Source of the DNA: a virus
Strand: one strand, 5' to 3'
Virus record (IMG/VR): IMGVR_UViG_3300045988_134388
Coordinates: 1 to 31,230 of that record
DNA: 31,230 nt
Shown: positions 10,071-30,605 of the stretch, piece by piece
Layout of the letters: every line of letters starts with the position of its first letter
Position numbering within the stretch: the stretch's first letter is position 1
Translations under genes and position numbers: made by a program
The notes under the pieces: model-generated
Seen by the model: the letters and a program-made list of their open reading frames with translations, nothing else
Databases searched by the model: none
What the model was told of the DNA's origin: nothing

Positions 10071-12038
10071 GTGAGGAATTTGGAAGATTTAAGGGTGCAA
10101 ATGAGCCTTGACTCCTCTCAATTTAATTCTGGTATTGAGCAAGCAAGCAGCAAAGTTGGCTCACTAAAAGGAAAAATGAGTGAGATTGGGCAGGGCCTAA
10201 AAGATGTTGGTACAAAGATGACTGCTGCTGGTGTTGCTATGGTTGCTTCTGTTGGTGGTATAGTTGCAAAAGGTGCTGAATGGAGTGCTTCTGTTGAATC
10301 AACTCAATTCTTATATAATAATTTAGATAAAACTGTTCAAAAAAGTATTTCAACAAATGCTAAAAGTGCCAAGTCATTAGGTATGACTGAGCAGCAGTAT
10401 AAAAAGAATGCTACAACTATTGCAACATATTATAAAAATATGGGACTAGCTGGAGAAGAGTCTGCAAAGCTAAGTCAAAAAACCATGACTCTTTCAGCTG
10501 ATTTAGCAGCTGTTGCTGATGTTCCAGTAGATGAAGCATTAAGAGATGTTAAATCAGCTCTTATGGGGAACTATGAGGCAGTTGATAAATATGGAGTAAG
10601 CTTATCTGCTAATGCTCTTGAAAACTCTGAGTATGTTAAATCATTAGGGAAAAAGTGGAATCAGCTTTCAGAAAATGAAAAGATGATGGCTGCTTATAAT
10701 GAAATAACAAGACAATCATCATCTGCTCAAGGACTTGCAAAGCAAGAAGCAAGTTCTTTTGGTATGCAGATGAAATTATTAAAAGAATCCATAGAAGAAA
10801 CAGTAGGGCAGCTGGGAAGTGCTTTATTGCCTATATTAGAGCCAATAGTTAAGAAGTTCCAAGAAGTAACTGAAAAAGTATCTGAATGGGTAAAAGAAAA
10901 TCCAAAACTAGCACAAGCAATATTAATGGTGGTTGGTGGACTTGGATTATTTTTAGCTGTAGTTGGTCCATTGGTTGCTGCTGTTGGACTTATAACAATG
11001 GGTATTGCTGGATTATCAGCTGTATCATGGCCAGTTGTAGGAGCTGTTGCTGCTATAACAGCTGTAATAGTTGGATTAGTTGCTGCTGGTATATATCTTT
11101 ATACTCATTGGGAAGAAGTAAAAGCTAAAGCCATTGAAATATGGAATGCTATCAAAGAAGGTGTTTCTAATGCTGTTTCAGCTTTAGGAGACTTTATAAG
11201 TGCAACATGGGATGGCATCAAGGCTTTTCTGAGTACATGCTGGGAACTAATTAAATCAGCTGCAAATACAGTTTGGAATGGAATCAAGACTGTTATTAGT
11301 ACAGCAATAAATATAATAAAAACAATAATAACTACTGTTTTTAATGCTATTAAGCTTTATATTACAACTGTTTTTAATGCTATTAAACTTGTTGCAACTA
11401 CTGTTTGGAATGCTATTAAGACTGTTATTACTACAGTAGTAAATGGAATTAAAACTATTATCACAACTGTTTTTAATGCAGTTAAAAATACTATTACAAC
11501 TGTTTTTAACACTATAAAATCATTAACAACTTCTGTATGGAATGGAATTAAGACTGTTATAAATAGTGCTTGTAATACTGTTAAATCTACAGTAAGCAAT
11601 GTATTTAATGGCTTAAAAAATACTGTTAAAAATGCTTTAGATAGTGTTTACAACACTGCTAAAGGAATATGGAACAAAGTAACTGGAATATTTACAAAGC
11701 CAATTAGTGCTGTTGTAAATTTTGTTAAAGGTGGTAAAGCAGGGAAAGCTGCTAAAGCTTCTTATTCAATGCTTAATCCAAAATCAATTCCACAAGCTCA
11801 ATCTTATGCAGCTGTTTCTAAAAATTATTCTGCATCTGAAAAAATGGCTTCTTACTCAAGAAGTAATTCAGCTGGAATAAATAATTCTAGTAGTTCACCA
11901 ATCTCATTAAGTGCAAATCTTAATAGTTTTGTTCAATTAGATGGAAAAACACTAGCAAAAGCAACTGCTCCATATATGAGTAATGAGCTTGATAAATTAA
12001 CTAAGAGAAAAAATAGATTAGGAGGTGCATTTGCTTAA
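10071..12038 (+). CDS. Tape measure protein
   Basis: 655 aa with a central block of TM helices and a C-terminal 11-aa repeat array. Start is uncertain (GTG 10071, TTG 10080, ATG 10101). Confidence 0.9.
   Translation: MRNLEDLRVQMSLDSSQFNSGIEQASSKVGSLKGKMSEIGQGLKDVGTKMTAAGVAMVASVGGIVAKGAEWSASVESTQFLYNNLDKTVQKSISTNAKSAKSLGMTEQQYKKNATTIATYYKNMGLAGEESAKLSQKTMTLSADLAAVADVPVDEALRDVKSALMGNYEAVDKYGVSLSANALENSEYVKSLGKKWNQLSENEKMMAAYNEITRQSSSAQGLAKQEASSFGMQMKLLKESIEETVGQLGSALLPILEPIVKKFQEVTEKVSEWVKENPKLAQAILMVVGGLGLFLAVVGPLVAAVGLITMGIAGLSAVSWPVVGAVAAITAVIVGLVAAGIYLYTHWEEVKAKAIEIWNAIKEGVSNAVSALGDFISATWDGIKAFLSTCWELIKSAANTVWNGIKTVISTAINIIKTIITTVFNAIKLYITTVFNAIKLVATTVWNAIKTVITTVVNGIKTIITTVFNAVKNTITTVFNTIKSLTTSVWNGIKTVINSACNTVKSTVSNVFNGLKNTVKNALDSVYNTAKGIWNKVTGIFTKPISAVVNFVKGGKAGKAAKASYSMLNPKSIPQAQSYAAVSKNYSASEKMASYSRSNSAGINNSSSSPISLSANLNSFVQLDGKTLAKATAPYMSNELDKLTKRKNRLGGAFA
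11263..11690 (+). repeat. Tandem 33-bp (11-aa) repeats inside the tape measure gene
   Basis: About 12 units of the form T-T-V-F/W-N-A/G-I-K-x-x-I with a periodic aromatic residue. Confidence 0.85.
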
Positions 12039-21592: not shown

Positions 21593-21705
21593 TAGTTCAC
21601 CTTCCTTTGCTTTTATATGATATTTAACTAATTAAACATTAACTGAATTATATCCTTCTTTACAATAAAAGATACAAAATAGGGGCAACTTTTACAAAGA
21701 AAAGT

Positions 21706-21733
21706 GTCTCAAACTAAGTAGTTGCAAGGCATT
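21706..21733. repeat. Box A copy 1: TCTCAAACTAAGTAGTTGCAAGGCATT
   Basis: Similar to 22130-22157 at about 22 of 27 positions. The AGTAGTnGCAAGG core also occurs at 22251-70. Confidence 0.6.
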
Positions 21734-21757
21734 CAATAGTGTATGAGTAATGGCTAC

Positions 21758-21798
21758 TAGATAATATAATGTATTATTATTATACTTTATATTATCTA
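21758..21798. repeat. Perfect 12-bp inverted repeat TAGATAATATAA / TTATATTATCTA
   Basis: Arms at 21758-69 and 21787-98 with a 17-nt AT-only spacer. Confidence 0.7.
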
Positions 21799-21911
21799 AG
21801 AGAGTTTTCTTAAACAGCCTTCAATCCCAGTCATAGCAACATATACAGCCATTATTTCTGACTGTTTTTGCCCCTTTTATGATTATAGAATATAATATGC
21901 TGCCTTAATTA

Positions 21912-21947
21912 CTGTATAAATGTTATCTGGTTGCAGCATTAAAAGCT
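21912..21947. repeat. Box B copy 1: CTGTATAAATGTTATCTGGTTGCAGCATTAAAAGCT
   Basis: The second copy at 22067-22101 differs by 3 substitutions and 1 indel. The copies are 155 bp apart in direct orientation. Confidence 0.7.
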
Positions 21948-22066
21948 CTATAAGCTCTTACATGATTAACAACTATTCATTATGAGTGAATTATCATAAG
22001 GATGCTCTAACTATTCTGTATGTTTCTCTTATAAGCTAATTTGATTATCTGATGCTGCTATGTTCT

Positions 22067-22101
22067 CTGTATAAATGTTATAATGTTGCAGCATTAAAGC
22101 T
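22067..22101. repeat. Box B copy 2
   Basis: CTGTATAAATGTTATAATGTTGCAGCATTAAAGCT. Confidence 0.7.
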
Positions 22102-22129
22102 TTTAATACAAAAATGAACAAAAAAAGTA

Positions 22130-22157
22130 AGCTCAATCCAAGTAGTAGCAAGGCATT
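22130..22157. repeat. Box A copy 2: GCTCAATCCAAGTAGTAGCAAGGCATT
   Basis: See 21706-21733. Confidence 0.6.
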
Positions 22158-22184
22158 GAGGCACTTTGGTGAATAGGACCCTGA

Positions 22185-22235
22185 ATAGATAACTAATATA
22201 TATTATATTAGCATATCTATTGGGGGGCATAGATA
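22185..22235. repeat. Alternating ATAGATA / TATCTAT / ATAGATA arms with a G6 loop
   Basis: ATAGATA (22185-91), a near-palindromic AT spacer, TATCTAT (22214-20), TGGGGGGC, then ATAGATA (22229-35). The arms could form two mutually exclusive hairpins. Confidence 0.55.
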
Positions 22236-22250
22236 ACAACATGCACCAAC

Positions 22251-22287
22251 AGTAGTATTTGCAAGGTGTTGAGGCCATTTTTATATA
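22251..22287 (+). promoter_or_regulatory. Box A copy 3 overlapping a possible + strand promoter
   Basis: AGTAGTATTTGCAAGGTGTT. TTGCAA, a 17-nt spacer, then TATATA points rightward, antisense to the 22443..22994 gene. Confidence 0.3.
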
Positions 22288-22442
22288 CTCATTTTTGTAA
22301 TTCTTCTGTATAACATGGCTCTTAACAGCTTACAGAAAGCACTTAATAATCTACATGACTATTTATACTTTAACAGCATTAACTAATCATACAGAGCAAC
22401 TGGAGCTTAAATTAAGTATATATAAAGCAAAAAGAGCCACAA

Positions 22443-23113: not shown

Positions 23114-23686
23114 ATGGAAGAAGCTAAAAAACATGAATGGTATGGACTAGCTCCAACACAAAGAGAGAGATTAGTTTTAGAGCTATTGACTCAAGGATAT
23201 ACAGCAGATATGCTTAATGAATATTTTGATGTAAAAACTAAGAGAGTAATAAATGATTTTATGAATGCCAGAGGCTATAGAAAAAGAGGTAATTCATATG
23301 TACCTAAGAAACAATCAGAGAACATGTCAGCTGCTCCTATAATGCATCAACAAAACAATATGTTGCCTAATATACAAATAGATGATGAGACTATATTCAA
23401 TATAATGAGTTTATCAAAACAGTATGATAAGATACAAGAAATAATAGATTCATATGATAATGGAACATTATCAACTAATAATGGACCAACAGAGAGTTAT
23501 ATTGAAGTAGTGGACACATCAATGCCTATATTAAAAATAGAGGGTGAAATCAAAAGAACTACAATAAGAGTTAATGAGAATATAATGAGTGATTTTAATA
23601 AACTATGGAAAGATAAATACTCTGAATATAAGCAACATGACCTTTTAAATTTAGCTCTACAAAACTTTATAGATAAATATAAATAG
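23114..23686 (+). CDS. Early regulator with two DNA-binding modules (N-terminal LuxR/sigma-region-4-like HTH; C-terminal ribbon-helix-helix-like)
   Basis: LAPTQRERLVLELLTQGYTADMLNEYF is GerE/LuxR-like. RTTIRVNENIMSDFNKLWKD...LLNLALQNFIDKY fits a beta-strand plus two-helix RHH pattern. Confidence 0.7.
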   Translation: MEEAKKHEWYGLAPTQRERLVLELLTQGYTADMLNEYFDVKTKRVINDFMNARGYRKRGNSYVPKKQSENMSAAPIMHQQNNMLPNIQIDDETIFNIMSLSKQYDKIQEIIDSYDNGTLSTNNGPTESYIEVVDTSMPILKIEGEIKRTTIRVNENIMSDFNKLWKDKYSEYKQHDLLNLALQNFIDKYK

Positions 23687-23796: not shown

Positions 23797-23952
23797 ATGG
23801 AACAAAAGAAAAAACTTATCATAAATATTATAGTTATTCCATTTATTATTGGTTTAGCTGTAAACTTTGTTTATGATATAGTAAAAAACCACTCTTACTG
23901 GCATAAGGGTGGTTTTCAAGTTGAATTCAACATAAAAGTTAAATTTGACTAA
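23797..23952 (+). CDS. 51-aa membrane peptide MEQKKKLIINIIVIPFIIGLAVNFVYDIVKNHSYWHKGGFQVEFNIKVKFD (type I toxin candidate)
   Basis: Hand-translated. SD AGGAAGGAGG lies 10 nt upstream and is half-buried in the hairpin TTCCTAC-AGTAA-GTAGGAA (23763-81). The peptide has a KKK N-terminus, one TM helix and a polar tail. The mRNA ends are complementary. Confidence 0.6.
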   Translation: MEQKKKLIINIIVIPFIIGLAVNFVYDIVKNHSYWHKGGFQVEFNIKVKFD

Positions 23953-24102: not shown

Positions 24103-24131
24103 TTGCATATGTGTCATAAATGTGGTAATAT
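24103..24131 (+). promoter_or_regulatory. Strong sigma-A-type promoter with extended -10
   Basis: TTGCAT (24103-08), a 17-nt spacer, TGg TAATAT (24123-31). An A/T-rich UP-like tract lies upstream. The spacer contains copy 1 of the 16-nt box. Confidence 0.7.
24110..24125 (+). promoter_or_regulatory. 16-nt box copy 1 (TGTGTCATAAATGTGG)
   Basis: Variant of TGTCTCATAAAGGTGT located in the spacer of the 24103 promoter. Confidence 0.5.
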
Positions 24132-24137
24132 TATGAC

Positions 24138-24990
24138 AAGGAACAAAGAGAACAAATGAAAGTTGCAGGAAACAGCAAGAGAAGTCCAGAGATGGAAAAT
24201 CACAGCAGATAACAAGCTAACCATAGAAAGAGTAAGAGTAGCTCCAACAGTTCCAATAAATCAAACCTAATATGGATTTACTGAATAAGCAAGAATACAA
24301 GGATAATCAGAGCTTATAAAAATAGTTAAGAGCAACAGCACTAAGAACTCAATAAATAATGTGTAGCAAATGAATGAAATTGAAGGCCAGCTCCTAAGAA
24401 AGAGTGATGGCTGAGGGAGACATAGGAGGCACATTAAGAGGATGATTCAAAGAATCACAAGGAGAAAGCTAATAAGACTTTTAAGATACTATAGAATAAA
24501 AGCTACTGGTGAGTCTAGTACACAGAGCAAATAGTAACCATTCTAAGATAATTTCAATTAATAATATAGATAATTTTTCAAGTACATACTTTAATAAGAA
24601 TAGGATAAGAAATAAACTGGCCAGATTTCCTAATATAAAAAATAAAAATATTTTATACTTTTATGTTAATAGAGTAAAAATAATAGTAATATGTAGATGT
24701 AAGCAACTATAACTAAAATGTCTCATAAAGGTGTCATGTGAAACAGTATCACAACATCTTATAAGGAAATAAAAAAATATGAACAAAACTGCATAGAGGT
24801 ATGCACTGTTCATATAGTAAAGTTAAGAGCAAATAGCTCTGAAAAACTTAATATTTGTCTTTATTTATCATTATATGATTAATTTTGATTTTATACCCTG
24901 CTGGAGCTGGAAAGCTCCATTCCCTTTAAGGAACAGAGGACCCAAAGATGATAAGTAGAGATAAATATAAAAAATAAATGGGGGAAATTA
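24138..24990 (+). ncRNA. ORF-free transcript: candidate long ncRNA, long leader, or transcription-activated origin region
   Basis: It lies downstream of the strong promoter. All three + frames are broken by mixed TAA/TAG/TGA, and no RBS-bearing ORF occurs before ATG 24994. Composition resembles a sense strand (purine-rich) up to ~24540, then becomes extremely AT-rich. Confidence 0.35.
24719..24734 (+). promoter_or_regulatory. 16-nt box copy 2 (TGTCTCATAAAGGTGT)
   Basis: Exact consensus, followed by CATGTGAAACAGTAT. This resembles the sequence downstream of copy 4. Confidence 0.5.
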
Positions 24991-24993
24991 CAC

Positions 24994-25491
24994 ATGAAAC
25001 TTTTAAAAATAACAACACAAGGACTTATAGATATAACAAATACAGAGGTTATGAGCTACAACAGAGCTGCAATATTAAAAGAAGGTTGGAGATTAAAGAG
25101 AGCAGGAATTAAAGATGGATTAGCTCAAGCATGGAAAGCAGCAAGAACTCAAATGAATAACCTAAAAGAATTAATAGCTGAAACAGAGCAAGAGAGAGCA
25201 GATTATATAGAAGATTATTCAATGGCATATGAAGTTGCTGGAGATTTAATCTCAGATGGAATAGAGCCAGAGGAAGGTCCAATGGCAGATGCTCTTCATG
25301 ACTATAAAGAAATGGTACAAGTTATGGAAGAAATGGGATTCTTAAATCCACAGTCAGAGCTTGAGGAACTATTCCAACAATTAGTGAAAGAATATCTGGA
25401 TGAAAATAAAGAAGAAACTGTAGAGCAGCCAAAGAGCTTTGCAGAGATACAAAAGGAAAGATTAAAAAAATTACTTGGAGAGGTGGCATAG
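24994..25491 (+). CDS. Hypothetical acidic early protein
   Basis: 165-aa ORF with SD GGGGGA. No motif recognised. Confidence 0.8.
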   Translation: MKLLKITTQGLIDITNTEVMSYNRAAILKEGWRLKRAGIKDGLAQAWKAARTQMNNLKELIAETEQERADYIEDYSMAYEVAGDLISDGIEPEEGPMADALHDYKEMVQVMEEMGFLNPQSELEELFQQLVKEYLDENKEETVEQPKSFAEIQKERLKKLLGEVA

Positions 25492-25494
25492 GAT

Positions 25495-25680
25495 ATGGCA
25501 GCAAGAAAAGACTTAACTGATAGAAATGGAAAATCACAAGATATGGTTAAAAGGAGCTTTAGATTAACAGATGCAGAGAATGCAATGCTAAATCACTTAA
25601 CAGCTCAAACTGGTTTAACACTTAGAGACTTAATGGCTCAATTAGTAGAAGAAAAATACAATAAGTTAAATAAGAACTAA
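25495..25680 (+). CDS. Ribbon-helix-helix (CopG/Arc-like) DNA-binding protein
   Basis: KRSFRLTDAENAMLNHLTAQTGLTLRDLMAQLV fits the RHH strand-helix-helix pattern. 61 aa. Confidence 0.7.
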   Translation: MAARKDLTDRNGKSQDMVKRSFRLTDAENAMLNHLTAQTGLTLRDLMAQLVEEKYNKLNKN

Positions 25681-25698
25681 AAAAGGATGGTAGATAAC

Positions 25699-25854
25699 AT
25701 GGTTAATAAATTACAAGCTTTAGAAACAGTAATAGGAATGACAATAGATGCAGCAGCAGATGTTGATGATTTACAAATAATAATGGAGCTTTTATACAGC
25801 AAAGCAGAAGCTCTGGATGCAAAGATAATAGAAGTTGAAGAAAAAAGTTTATAA
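25699..25854 (+). CDS. 51-aa acidic helical hypothetical protein
   Basis: Hand-translated MVNKLQALETVIGMTIDAAADVDDLQIIMELLYSKAEALDAKIIEVEEKSL. SD AAGGATGGTA is the same context as neighbouring genes. Confidence 0.6.
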   Translation: MVNKLQALETVIGMTIDAAADVDDLQIIMELLYSKAEALDAKIIEVEEKSL

Positions 25855-25956
25855 AAAATTTTAAAAATGAAATGTAAAAAGTAACACACATATAGTAATA
25901 CATGAACAAAGGGAAATAAATCAAACTAAAATAATCACAAAGGATGGTAAATTAAT

Positions 25957-28134
25957 ATGAATAAAAGATTAGAAAAATTATACAAGGAATTAAATGAATT
26001 AGAAGCTACTAGAAAAGGAGCAATGGAAAACATAAATGCTTACACAGATGAAGAATTAGATTTAATGTTAGAAGCAATAAATGCAAAAGAAGCAGAAATA
26101 GATGCTGAATTAGAAAATCCAACAGAAGATGCTCAAGAAGAGCTAGAGACAGTAAAAGTTACAATGGATAACTTAGAGGAAGTAACAGCATTAATATTTG
26201 GAGCAGAAGAGTTCCAAGCTATGAAAGAAAGAGCTGCAAGAAGAACTGAAGCTGCATTAGAAGTATTTAAAAATGAAATAGAAGAAATAATGCATGAAAT
26301 TGATGAAAATAATGATATAATGTCTATAGAGGAGGCTGAACAAATGACACATAAAGTATTATTAGATAGTGTTGAGTTCACTCAAAAGCCTACAGACAAA
26401 GAAACTGGTGGAATACAAAACAGACTTCCAGAGAGTGTTGCAGAAGTAACAATAGAAGAGCTTGCAGCAGCATTGACATCTGGGAGAACATTTAAGCCTA
26501 ACTATATGACTGGAAGAGGTCAATCAAGCTTTGTGTCATCATCTTTAATAGCAATAGATATAGATAACAAAGGAAAAGAGCTTGATGAATATGGCTACAT
26601 CTCTATAGAAGATTTTAAATCAAGAGTAGAAGATTCAGAATTTAAGCCAGCTATAATTTATACTACTTTTAGCCATACAGATGTATGTCATAAGTATAGA
26701 GCTATATTCCAACTTAAAAGATTAGTAACTAAAATAGAAGAGCTTAAAGCTGTAGGAGCTGCAATAAAGAGTGAATATCCTTTTGCAGATGCTAAGGTTT
26801 CAGTTGTACATCCAATCTATGGTGGAAATAATTTAATAGAATTAAATCCAGATGCTGTTGTAGATATGGATAATAACATAATATTTAGCTTAACAATGCA
26901 AGATGCTAAAGTTGAAGATACAGTTATAACTGAAATAACAGAAGCTGCAAGAACAACAAAAGAAACAACAAAATTAACTAAAGACAGTATAATAACAGAA
27001 ACATTAATGAATTTATATGGCAATAGAACTTTTGAATCATATGATGAATTAAAAAAATACTTATTAGGAATCAATTTAGCAGATTTATTAAGAGTTAAGA
27101 ATCCAAGCAAGTTTAAATGTATATTCCATAATGATTCAAGACCATCTGCTGGAATATTTGAAGCAAATGGAGAGTTCATATATAACTGTTTCAGTGGATG
27201 TGAACATGGAAAGAAAGATATATTTAATATAGTTGCAAAATTACAAGAGTTTGAAGGCTCTGCATCTGAGCAATATTTAAAAGCATCAAAATTCCTAATG
27301 GATAAACTTAACTTAAAAGTTAGAAATGAAGAATGGATGCAAGCACAATTCACAACTATAAGAGAAAACAGATTAATATTAATCCAAAATAGAATAAATA
27401 AAAGCAACTATCCAGCATTATCTCCAAGAATGAGACACATAACAAACTTATTAAGAGCAATGCTAGACCATGCAGAAGCTGCTGTAATGAGTTACCCAAC
27501 TAAAGATATAACTGGACAAGCTTTATTCTTTGTATCTTATAATCAATTATCAGAGCTTTTAAATGGTAAAGATGAAAGAACAATAAGAAAACAAATAACA
27601 GAATTAACTATGTTAGGACTTATAAGAAAAATATCAGATGAAGAAGTTCAACAAGTAGCTCCAAAGAGATTTAATGAATCTTTAAAATATAAAATACAAA
27701 ATAATCTAGCTCACACAGTTCAATATTATTCAATACCTTTATGGAATGCTGATACATTATCAAAAGCAAATGAAATAAAAGCTCAAGGTAATGCTGCTGG
27801 AATAACATCAAAAGGAATAGGAATGAGAGCTGCATCTGCTATAAATAAAACTGTATCAACTAAAGTAGAGCATAAAGAATCTGTTCAAACAAATGCAGAT
27901 ATAGATAAAATGATAAAATGGACTAAGAGAACTATAACAAGAAATGGAGCTGTTTTAAAAGATGATTTTGTTAAATATGCAAAGAAAAACAGTATTGGAG
28001 CAACATATGCTGCATCTATCCTTCCAGTAGTTATAGCTCAATTAGAACTAAAAAAAGCCATAATAACAAATGAACTAATAAAAAAATACAGCCTTTCTAA
28101 GAACTCATTAAGAAAGACTGCATTCACAAAATAA
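25957..28134 (+). CDS. Replication initiator: primase-like fusion (acidic coiled-coil N-terminus, AEP/prim-pol-like core, CHC2-type zinc finger, C-terminal DNA-binding-like region)
   Basis: 725 aa. LIAIDIDN (nt ~26549) and TFSHTD resemble AEP motifs I and II. CIFHNDSRPSAG...YNCFSGCEHGKKDIFN (nt ~27118-27215) is a primase zinc-finger pattern. Confidence 0.75.
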   Translation: MNKRLEKLYKELNELEATRKGAMENINAYTDEELDLMLEAINAKEAEIDAELENPTEDAQEELETVKVTMDNLEEVTALIFGAEEFQAMKERAARRTEAALEVFKNEIEEIMHEIDENNDIMSIEEAEQMTHKVLLDSVEFTQKPTDKETGGIQNRLPESVAEVTIEELAAALTSGRTFKPNYMTGRGQSSFVSSSLIAIDIDNKGKELDEYGYISIEDFKSRVEDSEFKPAIIYTTFSHTDVCHKYRAIFQLKRLVTKIEELKAVGAAIKSEYPFADAKVSVVHPIYGGNNLIELNPDAVVDMDNNIIFSLTMQDAKVEDTVITEITEAARTTKETTKLTKDSIITETLMNLYGNRTFESYDELKKYLLGINLADLLRVKNPSKFKCIFHNDSRPSAGIFEANGEFIYNCFSGCEHGKKDIFNIVAKLQEFEGSASEQYLKASKFLMDKLNLKVRNEEWMQAQFTTIRENRLILIQNRINKSNYPALSPRMRHITNLLRAMLDHAEAAVMSYPTKDITGQALFFVSYNQLSELLNGKDERTIRKQITELTMLGLIRKISDEEVQQVAPKRFNESLKYKIQNNLAHTVQYYSIPLWNADTLSKANEIKAQGNAAGITSKGIGMRAASAINKTVSTKVEHKESVQTNADIDKMIKWTKRTITRNGAVLKDDFVKYAKKNSIGATYAASILPVVIAQLELKKAIITNELIKKYSLSKNSLRKTAFTK

Positions 28135-28178: not shown

Positions 28179-28207
28179 AGAGGAGCTGCCAACTCCTCTT
28201 TTTTTTA
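28179..28207 (+). terminator. Rho-independent terminator
   Basis: AGAGGAG-CTGCCAA-CTCCTCT followed by T8. Confidence 0.85.
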
Positions 28208-28375: not shown

Positions 28376-28391
28376 TGTCTCATAAAGATGT
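28376..28391 (+). promoter_or_regulatory. 16-nt box copy 3 (TGTCTCATAAAGATGT)
   Basis: It ends 50 nt before ATG 28441. It sits between TTAAAT and TAATAA, the same architecture as the 24103 promoter. Confidence 0.5.
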
Positions 28392-28440: not shown

Positions 28441-29133
28441 ATGATAAAAAAAGTAGACAAAACAAACAAATATTATAAAATGGCTCAGTCAATAGATTCA
28501 TTCTCTGATTTTATGCCAACTGGAGATGTAAGTAAAGACTTATTAGACCCAGTAAGAAAAGGCACACATACTTTTGATGAAATAGCAACAGAGGTTGCTG
28601 AATATATCTGGCTATCAATGAATTATGATACAAACCCACAATGGATAAGAGAAAATGGATTAGCTGGAAAGAAAAAATATTATCCAGAAGGAAATTGGAT
28701 AAATGATAGACTTCATATAGATGTAGAAGGAGAAGATGCTCAACTACAGCATTATATAAAAGTAAGGCTAATGAATTTTGAATGTATGCTTTATGAAGAT
28801 TATCTAATGAATACATTAAATGAGCTGCAATTATTTCAAGAAGTAAAGAATGCTGACTCAAGGATGGATAAAATCTTTAAGATAGATTTAATAGCAAAAG
28901 ATATAGAAGGAGAAGATTTTAATATATCAGTTTATAAATCTACAGATGAAACAGCTTTATATAAATTAAATAATAGCCAAGCATCAAGGAGATATAATAA
29001 TAGATTATCATATAATGTTAATAAATCTGGAGACCCAAGAGACCCAGAAAATGTATATAAATGGTTTTATGAAATAGTGGAGCAAGGAAAACACATAATA
29101 TATAGACAAAACAATTCATGGAAAGTTTCTTAA
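28441..29133 (+). CDS. Hypothetical protein
   Basis: 230-aa ORF with SD AAAGGTGG. No motif recognised. Confidence 0.8.
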   Translation: MIKKVDKTNKYYKMAQSIDSFSDFMPTGDVSKDLLDPVRKGTHTFDEIATEVAEYIWLSMNYDTNPQWIRENGLAGKKKYYPEGNWINDRLHIDVEGEDAQLQHYIKVRLMNFECMLYEDYLMNTLNELQLFQEVKNADSRMDKIFKIDLIAKDIEGEDFNISVYKSTDETALYKLNNSQASRRYNNRLSYNVNKSGDPRDPENVYKWFYEIVEQGKHIIYRQNNSWKVS

Positions 29134-29301: not shown

Positions 29302-29317
29302 TGTCTCATAAAGGTGT
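29302..29317 (+). promoter_or_regulatory. 16-nt box copy 4 (TGTCTCATAAAGGTGT)
   Basis: Exact consensus, ending 48 nt before ATG 29365. It is followed by TGaTAAACT, a possible extended -10. Confidence 0.5.
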
Positions 29318-29364: not shown

Positions 29365-30288
29365 ATGAAAAAACAAAGATTAGAACAATTAACAAATGAA
29401 ATGATAGAAATATTAATAATAGATTTACAAGAGGAAAATGCAACAGAAGAATCTCAAACAATAAAGTTTAAGCATTATAATCACCATATGCTAAATGGCT
29501 TAATAAAAAATGCAAGAGCTAAATATTCTCTAGAATGGTCAGCAGATATAATAAGAGATGAAGTTTATGCAACATTGTATGAATCAATGGAAATAATAGC
29601 TGCTAATATGGATATAGAAGAATTAACACTAGATAATTCAGAATTCATGGGACAATCTTATAACTTAACTATGCTAAAACTTAAAGAAAAACTTATTCCA
29701 AGAAGTAAGGTTGACAGAAATGGAGCAATAATAGGAACTACAGAATTAATTGTCTCACCTAAAGCAGAAGTTGATGCAGATGGAAATTCTGTTAATTTAT
29801 CATTAGAGGACTTACTGGCTGGACAAATAGTTTATAATACAGATATGGAAGAGGAGAGAGTTAATCACTTCTTAAGATGGTTTGATGCTAATAAATCTAA
29901 AATATTAACTAAAAAGCAAATAGACTTTATAGATGGTGGACATATAGCAGAAGATAAAACAAATGCTTATAAAATGAGAAAGAGAATATCTGAAAGAGTA
30001 TCAAGAGCTTACAGTGAACAATATGGAGATGTATCTCCAAGAATAGCAGTATTAAAGGACCAAGAAAGAATACTGGAAGAAATACTAGATGCTAAAAGTT
30101 TCAGAGCTGCTTATGATAAATATAAAGATGAAGATTTTATAATAGATGCAGTTGCTGAATATGTTGCTCTTGATTATCTAAGAGCTTTTGATAAAGGAAA
30201 TGATAATCCAGAAACAATAAGAGCAATGAGAATTGCTTTATATAAAAGATTAGGTGAAGTAATAAACATGATAGAGGCTGTTAAATAG
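29365..30288 (+). CDS. Hypothetical protein in the late-regulator position (weak sigma region-4-like segment; speculative)
   Basis: 307-aa ORF, the last large gene before the packaging genes. LTKKQIDFIDGG...NAYKMRKRISERV loosely resembles a sigma region 4 / HTH. Confidence 0.75.
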   Translation: MKKQRLEQLTNEMIEILIIDLQEENATEESQTIKFKHYNHHMLNGLIKNARAKYSLEWSADIIRDEVYATLYESMEIIAANMDIEELTLDNSEFMGQSYNLTMLKLKEKLIPRSKVDRNGAIIGTTELIVSPKAEVDADGNSVNLSLEDLLAGQIVYNTDMEEERVNHFLRWFDANKSKILTKKQIDFIDGGHIAEDKTNAYKMRKRISERVSRAYSEQYGDVSPRIAVLKDQERILEEILDAKSFRAAYDKYKDEDFIIDAVAEYVALDYLRAFDKGNDNPETIRAMRIALYKRLGEVINMIEAVK

Positions 30289-30301
30289 TCTCTATTTTTT
30301 T
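30271..30301 (+). terminator. Rho-independent terminator overlapping the stop codon
   Basis: ATAGAG-13 nt-CTCTAT followed by T6. Confidence 0.6.
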
Positions 30302-30525: not shown

Positions 30526-30605
30526 CAGCTATAGCAGCAGAAATATTTACCTCCTTTCAAAAAATCCTCCTCCTATAAGTAATTCTGCTATAGCTGCTTT
30601 TTTTA
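30526..30605 (+). ncRNA. Stem-loop RNA with anti-Shine-Dalgarno-like loop plus U-tract (sRNA or unusual terminator)
   Basis: A 12-bp perfect stem, CAGCTATAGCAG (30526-37) / CTGCTATAGCTG (30585-96), closes a 47-nt loop. The loop contains ACCTCCTTTC (30549-58) and CCTCCTCCT (30566-74). CTTTTTTTA follows the stem. Confidence 0.35.

Follow-up and report, generated by a model that had tools for sequence, protein, structure and literature searches.

The put RNA of phage HK022 and EAR are precedents for antitermination by RNA acting in cis. A further precedent is provided by the conAn2 elements of conjugative plasmids of Gram-positive bacteria, RNA elements of 260–600 bp that head long operons and act in cis on termination (PMC8191782). 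A different task falls to the non-coding transcript PE1-T of Lactococcus phage c2. Two early promoters flank a region free of open reading frames (ORFs) there, and PE1-T, the product of the first, is needed for initiation at the phage origin and has a length and sequence or structure reported to be critical (PMC7150918). The locus considered here lies in a 31,230-nucleotide (nt) stretch of viral DNA (IMG/VR record IMGVR_UViG_3300045988_134388), called the window throughout, which represents a siphovirus-like phage of ~31 kb with ~30% GC. Its gene-free tract, at 24133–24993, is best explained as a conserved non-coding early transcription unit, in which a core of ~410 nt (24138–24545, plus strand) follows a predicted promoter, P1, and lies directly 5′ of an operon encoding a putative ribbon-helix-helix (RHH) repressor and a primase-like replication protein. 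An earlier note on this DNA had pictured a single RNA of ~0.85 kb; the tract is not homogeneous: beyond the core it comprises an AT spacer of low conservation that carries DNA-level features, then another promoter-like site and, as a separate element, a structured leader.

Divergent relatives were reached through homologues of the 725-residue primase-like protein (28–82% identity), whose contigs were then fetched. Nine relatives, L021, L025, L045, L046, L047/L048, L049/L052, L059, L064 and L096, have both the promoter and a homologous non-coding core, giving ten RNA-bearing lineages with the window (L049 and L052 are the same). The core starts ~7 nt after P1, its 5′ end being predicted from the promoter and its 3′ end set by the limit of conservation. 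At the nucleotide level it is 77–82% identical to L025, L021 and L096, level with the best-conserved genes; the corresponding identities are 56–64% for the AT spacer and 65–69% for the P2-leader region. In L096 the core is 80% identical, as against 54% (nucleotides) and 32% (amino acids) for the 725-residue protein, so that evolution of the element is not coupled to that of the replication protein. Judged by these identities, purifying selection acts on the core as strongly as on the neighbouring genes. Its position is fixed as well: it follows the gene for a protein of ~190–200 residues and the terminator of that gene, precedes the operon for a 61–66-residue protein and the 725-residue homologue, and is always co-oriented with and directly 5′ of this RHH-replication operon, despite a varying upstream neighbour and the gain or loss of the first downstream gene.

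Within the core, nearly invariant purine-rich stretches, predicted to be single-stranded, alternate with short covarying hairpins and are grouped into modules. Module M (24146–24250) contains GGAAACAGCAAGAGAAG, hairpin hp1 (TCCA 24185–88 with TGGA 24193–96), AAAUCACAGCAGAUAACA and an outer stem (AGCUA 24215–19 with UAGCU 24239–43) around GAGUAAGAG; in relatives a variable hairpin is inserted within the outer stem. A covariance model, R1, matches this module in every lineage that is not truncated at the 5′ end, and twice in L064. Six of its nine pairs have changed on both sides, and its covariation in alignment A5, which was fitted to the model, is 0.348, compared with 0.181 in shuffles (0 of 500) and 0.04–0.14 with slid partners; about ten lineages were used for covariation. 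Module N (24296–24349) consists of CAAGAAUACAAGG, a short variable hairpin (AGCU 24311–14 with AGUU 24324–27) with compensatory changes at alignment pairs 191–194/205–208, and the nearly invariant GCAACAGCACUAAGAACU (24332–49). The third slot is occupied by module M′ in window-type lineages and by a second M-like copy in the others. M′ (24357–24436) is formed by a long-range helix of UAAUGUGU (24357–64) and GCACAUUA (24429–36) around hairpin hp4 (24385–93 with 24402–12, loop CUAAGAAA). In alignment A7, an ungapped MAFFT alignment not fitted to structure, 96% of the M′ cells are paired, against 30–42% when slid; 5 of 17 pairs have changed on both sides, the stem occurs in three versions (GCCA/UGGC, GCUC/GAGC and GUUA/UAAC), and covariation is 0.282 versus 0.172 in shuffles (2 of 500). 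Farther 3′ (24443–24476), hairpin hp5 (UGAUUC 24443–48 with GAAUCA 24452–57) is followed by the invariant stretch GAAAGCUAAUAAG (24464–76). In alignment A6, likewise not structure-fitted, 78.6% of hp5 cells are paired, against 21–43% when slid, four of the six pairs have changed on both sides, and covariation reaches 0.333 versus 0.175 in shuffles (0 of 500); L096 has no hp5. The modules occur as M-N-M′, M-N-M or, in L045, N-M, which shows that their order is not fixed.

RNAalifold applied to a four-lineage alignment gave −35.3, compared with −16.8 ± 4.0 for column shuffles (z −4.65). The predicted base pairs of the core are kept by compensatory substitutions, the mark of a structured RNA. As to the strand, counts of G·U and A·C are equal in module M, and the M′ domain alone, through its invariant G·U pairs, favours the plus strand. 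For the 3′ part of the core (24477–24545) two alternative pairings can be drawn, and a consistent structure was not found. A helix closing the 5′ and 3′ ends of the core was considered and rejected, as it is not kept outside window-type lineages. The view of the earlier note that the tract is non-coding and functional is supported by its synteny across lineages whose primase-like proteins are down to ~28–32% identical and by the covarying RNA helices.

The coding potential of the tract is poor. Frames +1, +2 and +3 of 24133–24993 hold 27, 25 and 31 stop codons, with TAA, TAG and TGA mixed, and their longest open stretches are 47, 71 and 26 codons; counting both strands, the longest ORF is at most 67 residues. 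In none of the ten lineages (725-residue homologue identity 28–100%) did gene callers predict a gene within the gap, in agreement with the earlier claim that all three forward frames are interrupted. A decayed or recoded protein gene, which that note had also entertained, is an extremely improbable origin for the tract. It would account for the sense-like strand composition, purines making up 66.6% of 24136–24545, about 2 standard deviations above the window mean of 0.573 (standard deviation 0.044), just as the earlier estimate of two-thirds had it, though coding DNA at 25100–26400 is equally purine-rich. It would also account for two short ORFs (18 and 14 codons) common to window-type lineages. 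These ORFs lose frame in other lineages and indels of 1–4 nt are common between lineages, which excludes the idea; the compensatory stem changes are non-synonymous within the same ORFs, every frame carries 25–31 stops of all three kinds, and the flanking genes use the standard code. With no reading frame kept in relatives, a protein-coding gene or pseudogene was rejected.

P1 (24103–24131, plus strand) comprises a −35 element TTGCAT (24103–08), a 17-nt spacer with GTGTCATAAATGTG (24111–24) and an extended −10 element TGgTAATAT (24123–31). The form TTG(c/t/a)A(t/a)-17-TA(a/t/c)(t/a)AT after GGTG recurs in all nine lineages that could be aligned there. That this is the strongest promoter in the window, as had been proposed, was not confirmed: its elements lie where described and are conserved wherever the 5′ end was recovered, but it is absent from the list produced by a generic sigma-70 scan, because TTGCAT matches TTGACA at only three of six positions. 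Promoter-like sites across the window are no more frequent than in shuffles; given both results, 'strongest promoter' cannot be read from the window sequence alone, and it is conservation among the lineages that supports the predicted P1. A second, P2-type promoter-like site (24706–24745, plus strand) has poor hexamers and the same spacer motif as P1 (GTCTCATAAAGGTG, 24720–33). This 14-nt motif, GT(n)TCAYAAA(G/T)GTG, occurs at 24111–24124, 24720–24733, 28377–28390 and 29303–29316, always on the plus strand, intergenic and in the early region, and every copy serves as spacer in a promoter-like site, the last two lying 62–64 nt 5′ of the start codons at 28441 and 29365. Allowing up to two mismatches, the GTCTCATAAAGGTG-type motif has 10 matches, compared with 3.1 expected. 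It looks like a shared operator or the signature of a special promoter class, and it marks a small family of promoter-like sites, the hexamers of P1 being much the best among them.

In L021, L025, L047 and L064 the gene upstream of P1 has strong intrinsic terminators that lie just 5′ of the promoter. No terminator directly follows the core in any lineage, and linkage to the operon is constant; it follows that the core would form a long leader at the 5′ end of transcripts from P1. In L059, P2 is not recognisable, so that there the core must be the 5′ untranslated region of the operon. The sole plus-strand terminator-like site between P1 and the next gene is the hairpin T1 (24902–24929; UGGAGCU-GGAA-AGCUCCA at 24902–19 with an interrupted U-rich tail, −13.9 kcal/mol), ~75 nt 5′ of the ATG at 24994; its hairpin and T-rich tail are kept in L021, L025 and L096. 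Further plus-strand terminators lie at 28179–28199 and 30270–30296, and a long-stem hairpin (~12–20 bp, large loop) followed by U7 at 30526–30604, 3′ of the gene for a 307-residue protein, closes the early region. On the predicted transcript the core is thus promoter-proximal, in cis and 5′ of terminator-like sites at 24902, 28179 and 30270, the placement that characterizes antitermination RNAs.

We tentatively favour the reading that the core is a cis-acting 5′ leader controlling the downstream RHH-replication operon, and regard it as possible rather than probable; the 'long regulatory leader' of the earlier note is accordingly still a live reading. In this scheme, transcripts from P1 would not stop at the AT spacer or P2 but continue into the structured leader, and the core would be the physical 5′ part of the replication-operon transcript. 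Its conserved single-stranded motifs would be recognised by a partner that is itself conserved (the machinery for transcription or translation in the host, or an RNase-protecting factor, being the likeliest candidates), and the binding would set both the share of P1 transcripts passing T1 and the later terminators and the lifetime of the transcript. The core would thereby control the operon. The palindrome of the AT spacer, possibly serving the RHH protein, and the P2-type motif would be DNA-level operators within the same control region. Several observations weigh against control in cis. A P2 promoter-like site lies between core and operon in most lineages, so the operon is not strictly dependent on P1. 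The U-tract of T1 is interrupted, and T1 is not kept as a terminator in L045, L049, L059 and L064. Rfam offers no resemblance to a known antiterminator or riboswitch. The modules are duplicated and reordered between lineages, as one would expect of a binding-platform RNA more than of a cis-regulatory element with a fixed fold, and L061, alone among the lineages examined, does without the element. The window core by itself folds no better than shuffles (z −0.58), the alignment fold energies of the plus and minus strands (−35.3 and −36.6) do not separate the strands, and promoter, transcript ends and read-through are all predictions from sequence.

The same modularity brings in a second reading, in which the P1-driven RNA would be a 'gene' of the early regulon acting in trans, a decoy or scaffold that uses its repeated purine-rich motifs to titrate a conserved factor of the host or to organise it; candidate partners would be the 30S subunit, an RNA-binding protein, an RNase or a toxin. 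We consider this possible, if rather unlikely. The spacer motif of P1 is common to promoter-like sites before three protein-coding units, as would follow if the RNA were regulated like a gene. The varying number and order of modules is what multi-site binding RNAs display, and the unpaired stretches are nearly invariant while the phage proteins have diverged strongly, which argues for a conserved, probably host, partner. Consistent with such a partner, neither an antisense nor a sense target of the RNA was found elsewhere in the phage. Against action in trans stand the lack of a terminator belonging to the core in any lineage and the strict linkage to one operon, for which an RNA acting in trans has no need.

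CsrA specifically finds no support as the partner, which removes the sponge of CsrA type that had been suggested: GGA motifs are not significantly enriched, and the loops of hp1, hp5 and hp4 are, by our own reading of the sequences, GAGA, AAA and CUAAGAAA, none of them with GGA. The roughly ten AGGA/GGAG motifs of the earlier note come to 9, against 5.4 ± 2.4 expected from composition (p ~0.1). ACAAGGA does occur at 24136, 24297 and 24457, yet the regular spacing of 160/161 nt is lost in relatives, where the modules are rearranged; the whole window holds 8 copies, compared with 4.2 expected. A complementarity noticed between 24387 and 24903 is real in the window, CCAGCTCC being present at 24387–94, but L021 and L025 retain just 4–5 bp of the pairing. 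Each partner takes part in a local hairpin, and covariation backs the 5′ hairpin.

Between the core and P2 lies the AT-rich spacer (24546–24705), part of a segment with ~20% GC (24546–24740). It contains a perfect, GC-cored palindrome, CTGGCCAG (24617–24), which is kept as a perfect dyad of 8–12 bp; L021, L045, L049, L064 and L096 have matching sites. From lineage to lineage, its arms and its centre change in a symmetrical way (CTGGCCAG, AACCAGCTGGTT, TTCTGGCCAGAA, TCCTGGCCAGGA, ATCTGGCCAGAT and ATCTAGCTAGAT), a pattern from which the dyad symmetry itself is seen to be under selection. As it has no loop, we read it as a DNA-level site, and we suggest that it may be an operator for the 61-residue protein. 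A separate AT-only box of 30 nt, TGTAATTAATnATTATATATAGGTATTAAT, is identical in L021 (1989–2018), L025 (5197–5226) and L064 (3859–3888) and is missing in the window lineage.

DNA-like features of this kind raise the question whether the whole tract is a DNA-level control region of operators, promoters and protein sites whose RNA product has no function. The palindrome, the P2-type motif, the AT box shared by three relatives and the equal fold energy of the two strands would all fit, and we nevertheless judge this account quite improbable. Conservation sits in the 410-nt core and not in the spacer that holds the palindrome and P2-type sites; the core has compensatory changes in helices up to 65 nt apart and plus-strand invariant G·U pairs; and 400 bp of near gene-level conservation far exceeds what operators need.

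The region 3′ of P2 is structured in its own right. Leader hairpins at 24778–24840 (plus strand) comprise UAUGAACA (24778–85) paired with UGUUCAUA (24807–14) around UGCAUA-GAGG-UAUGCA, the conserved UAUAGUAA, and AGAGC (24826–30) with GCUCU (24836–40). These stems persist with changed sequence in L021, L025, L046, L049, L064 and L096; the first hairpin could instead be read as a promoter, TGCATA-17-TATAGT. A long inverted repeat (24848–24971, plus strand; arms 24848–71 and 24948–71, 24 nt, 83% complementary) brackets T1. The leader as a whole (24740–24993) folds at −63.1 kcal/mol, compared with −39.1 ± 4.3 in shuffles (z −5.6). The two GC hairpins singled out earlier, TGCATA-GAGG-TATGCA (24790–24805) and GGAGCT-GGAA-AGCTCC (24903–18), are both present and belong to this P2 leader, not to the core.

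The genes that follow bear on whether the tract serves replication. The 725-residue protein (25957–28134) was modelled with a mean predicted local distance difference test (pLDDT) score of 76; its best PDB match is 6zp9_A, the AEP domain of the PrimPol of cyanophage S-2L, and its C-terminal domains are winged-helix-like in the model. Pfam PF01807, which we take to be the primase CHC2 zinc finger, is present in a distant homologue from the family list, and by our reading the 725-residue protein has a CHC2-type zinc finger. From the PrimPol match and PF01807, 'replication genes' is a fair label. This protein has diverged or been exchanged between lineages (28–82% amino acid identity) within flanks that are 70–80% identical in nucleotides, which suggests that its gene is swapped as a module by recombination. 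The 61-residue protein (25495–25680) looks like an RHH repressor of the CopG/Arc type, and a gene for a protein of 61–66 residues lies 3′ of the non-coding region in every RNA-bearing lineage, a plasmid-like cop-rep layout. On the other side, the 190-residue protein (23114–23686, phrog_2727), whose gene is always just 5′ of P1, looks like a combination of an N-terminal helix-turn-helix and a C-terminal RHH-like region. PDB sequence searches with the neighbouring proteins were uninformative. Between the 190-residue gene and P1, the window lineage and its near-identical relatives have an inserted 51-codon ORF (23797–23952), encoding an apparent hydrophobic N-terminal segment, which is not present in L021, L025, L045, L047 and L064.

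A transcription-activated or transcript-primed origin, as in Lactococcus phage c2, would have the P1 RNA open or prime the AT-rich, palindrome-bearing segment. The layout agrees with this, a region that heads the early genes, is flanked by the first two early promoters and has neither an ORF nor a ribosome-binding site (RBS); so do the perfect dyad in a segment of ~20% GC directly 3′ of the core and the replication genes that follow, including the 725-residue protein with its AEP PrimPol-like fold. We nonetheless regard it as unlikely. The RNA does not covary with the replication protein (80% nucleotide versus 32% amino acid identity), the type of palindrome is independent of the clade of the 725-residue protein, and the phage has a primase-type initiator of its own, so that a primer made by host RNA polymerase is not needed. 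Neither tandem repeats nor iterons were found within the tract, which has no sequence similarity to the c2 origin, and GC skew as an origin marker is confounded by gene orientation. A more classical site lies upstream, at 21660–22400, where two imperfect palindromes of ~210 bp (21675–21881 and 22107–22300) accompany direct repeats 155 nt apart (21888–21943 and 22043–22098). The ~210-bp palindrome is kept in every lineage examined, including L061, which retains it together with iteron-like repeats, yet lacks the RNA. We regard it as a candidate origin, partition or resolution site, and as a stronger classical candidate than the gene-free tract. The earlier idea of a transcript plus an AT-rich element 5′ of the replication genes consequently survives, with its origin component weakened by the palindrome at 21.7–22.3 kb, by L061 and by the independence of RNA and replication protein.

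The phage itself is a gut phage, probably with a clostridial host. At least 94 blocks of public assemblies contain an exact copy of the 165-residue protein encoded 3′ of the gap, mostly on contigs of ~31 kb; samples of human gut or other metagenomes are the source of the fetched contigs (one is labelled human gut metagenome), among which the gap is 96.7–100% identical. Homologues of the 190-residue protein on plasmids of Clostridium, Clostridioides and Paraclostridium adjoin genes for ParM or ParA, a hint that the host is clostridial and that the phage lives as a phage-plasmid; no RNA homologous to the core follows the gene for the homologue on the clostridial plasmids. GenBank contains no close phage by blastn or megablast, which gave chance AT-rich matches or nothing, or by tblastn of the flanking proteins, and blastn against 50,697 phage records gave just short AT-rich chance matches, to Acinetobacter phages. 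IMG/VR scans for close proteins returned no match, and a scan of IMG/VR with two 18-mer motifs returned only chance loci, as judged by blast and model R1; the one real relative from IMG/VR was L049 (= L052). A three-part motif scan yielded one close relative in metagenomes and, in genomes, one chance match in a Desulfobacteraceae metagenome-assembled genome. No tRNA or tmRNA was found. Outside the early region, tandem repeats with a 132-nt period (33/66-nt sub-periods) occupy 11253–11628, within a 655-codon ORF (10071–12038) that probably encodes a tape-measure or other tail protein.

Searches for a described counterpart gave no candidate: no match reached the Rfam gathering threshold in the window and eight related loci, the search by cmscan that the earlier note had recommended with ROOL and GOLLD in mind included, and at E ≤ 10 there were three noise matches to eukaryotic snoRNA/miRNA; literature searches found no described equivalent. 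The core, the most conserved non-protein feature of the early region, fits no described RNA family, and we raise, as a speculation, that it founds a class of phage RNA not described before, modular, largely unpaired and purine-rich, which would capture a conserved host machine early in infection. Its shuffled modules would present the invariant motifs GGAAACAGCAAGAGAA, AAUCACAGCAGAUAACA, GAGUAAGAGUAG, GCAACAGCACUAAGAACU and GAAAGCUAAUAAG. That the machine is the ribosome, RNA polymerase, or an RNA-binding or defence protein, captured in trans or on the transcribing complex, is an equally speculative proposal. Control in cis, if true, would add a new long-leader or antitermination-like type for phages of Bacillota, where few are known; an origin transcript would extend the c2 paradigm to a very different phage group; and action in trans would constitute a new kind of phage decoy RNA. 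Under any reading, the locus offers experiments a mutable target of 410 nt with clear motifs and helices.

Among the described systems, the locus resembles in plan the origin of Ceduovirus (c2, bIL67 and 923), where a siphovirus of Bacillota likewise has several hundred base pairs without ORF or RBS between its first two early promoters (PMC7150918). In both cases a non-coding transcript starts from the first promoter, the one here being predicted from sequence, and the c2 layout is reproduced by P1 at 24103–31, the P2-type site at 24706–45, whose hexamers are weak, and the absence of a conserved ORF. The sequences show no similarity, and model R1 has no match in the c2 locus, L093. The c2 region separates divergent early and late modules, whereas here all genes are co-directional and follow a divergent regulator pair; the c2 origins fall into three unrelated types, whereas the core is conserved across the whole family; and, unlike c2, the window phage encodes its own primase-type protein and has another origin-like element at 21.7–22.4 kb.

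With conAn2, put and EAR the core shares its nature as a non-coding RNA encoded close to where a long array of co-directional genes in a mobile element begins, 5′ of intrinsic terminators. It differs from them in having no Rfam similarity and no GC-rich box of the conAn2 type, in being purine-rich and weakly folded, and in its own promoter, which is placed after a terminator. ROOL, GOLLD and HEARO are, like the core, several hundred nucleotides long, phage-borne, conserved and without an assigned function; instead of their ornate, GC-supported folds, the core is mostly single-stranded and purine-rich with hairpins of 4–8 bp, and cmscan gave no match to them at E ≤ 10. In the CsrB/RsmZ and CrcZ sponges, from which the core is set apart by GGA motifs that are neither enriched nor placed in hairpin loops and by the lack of a terminator of its own, the common ground is of another kind: repeated short motifs carried by a modular RNA, the number of modules varying among relatives.

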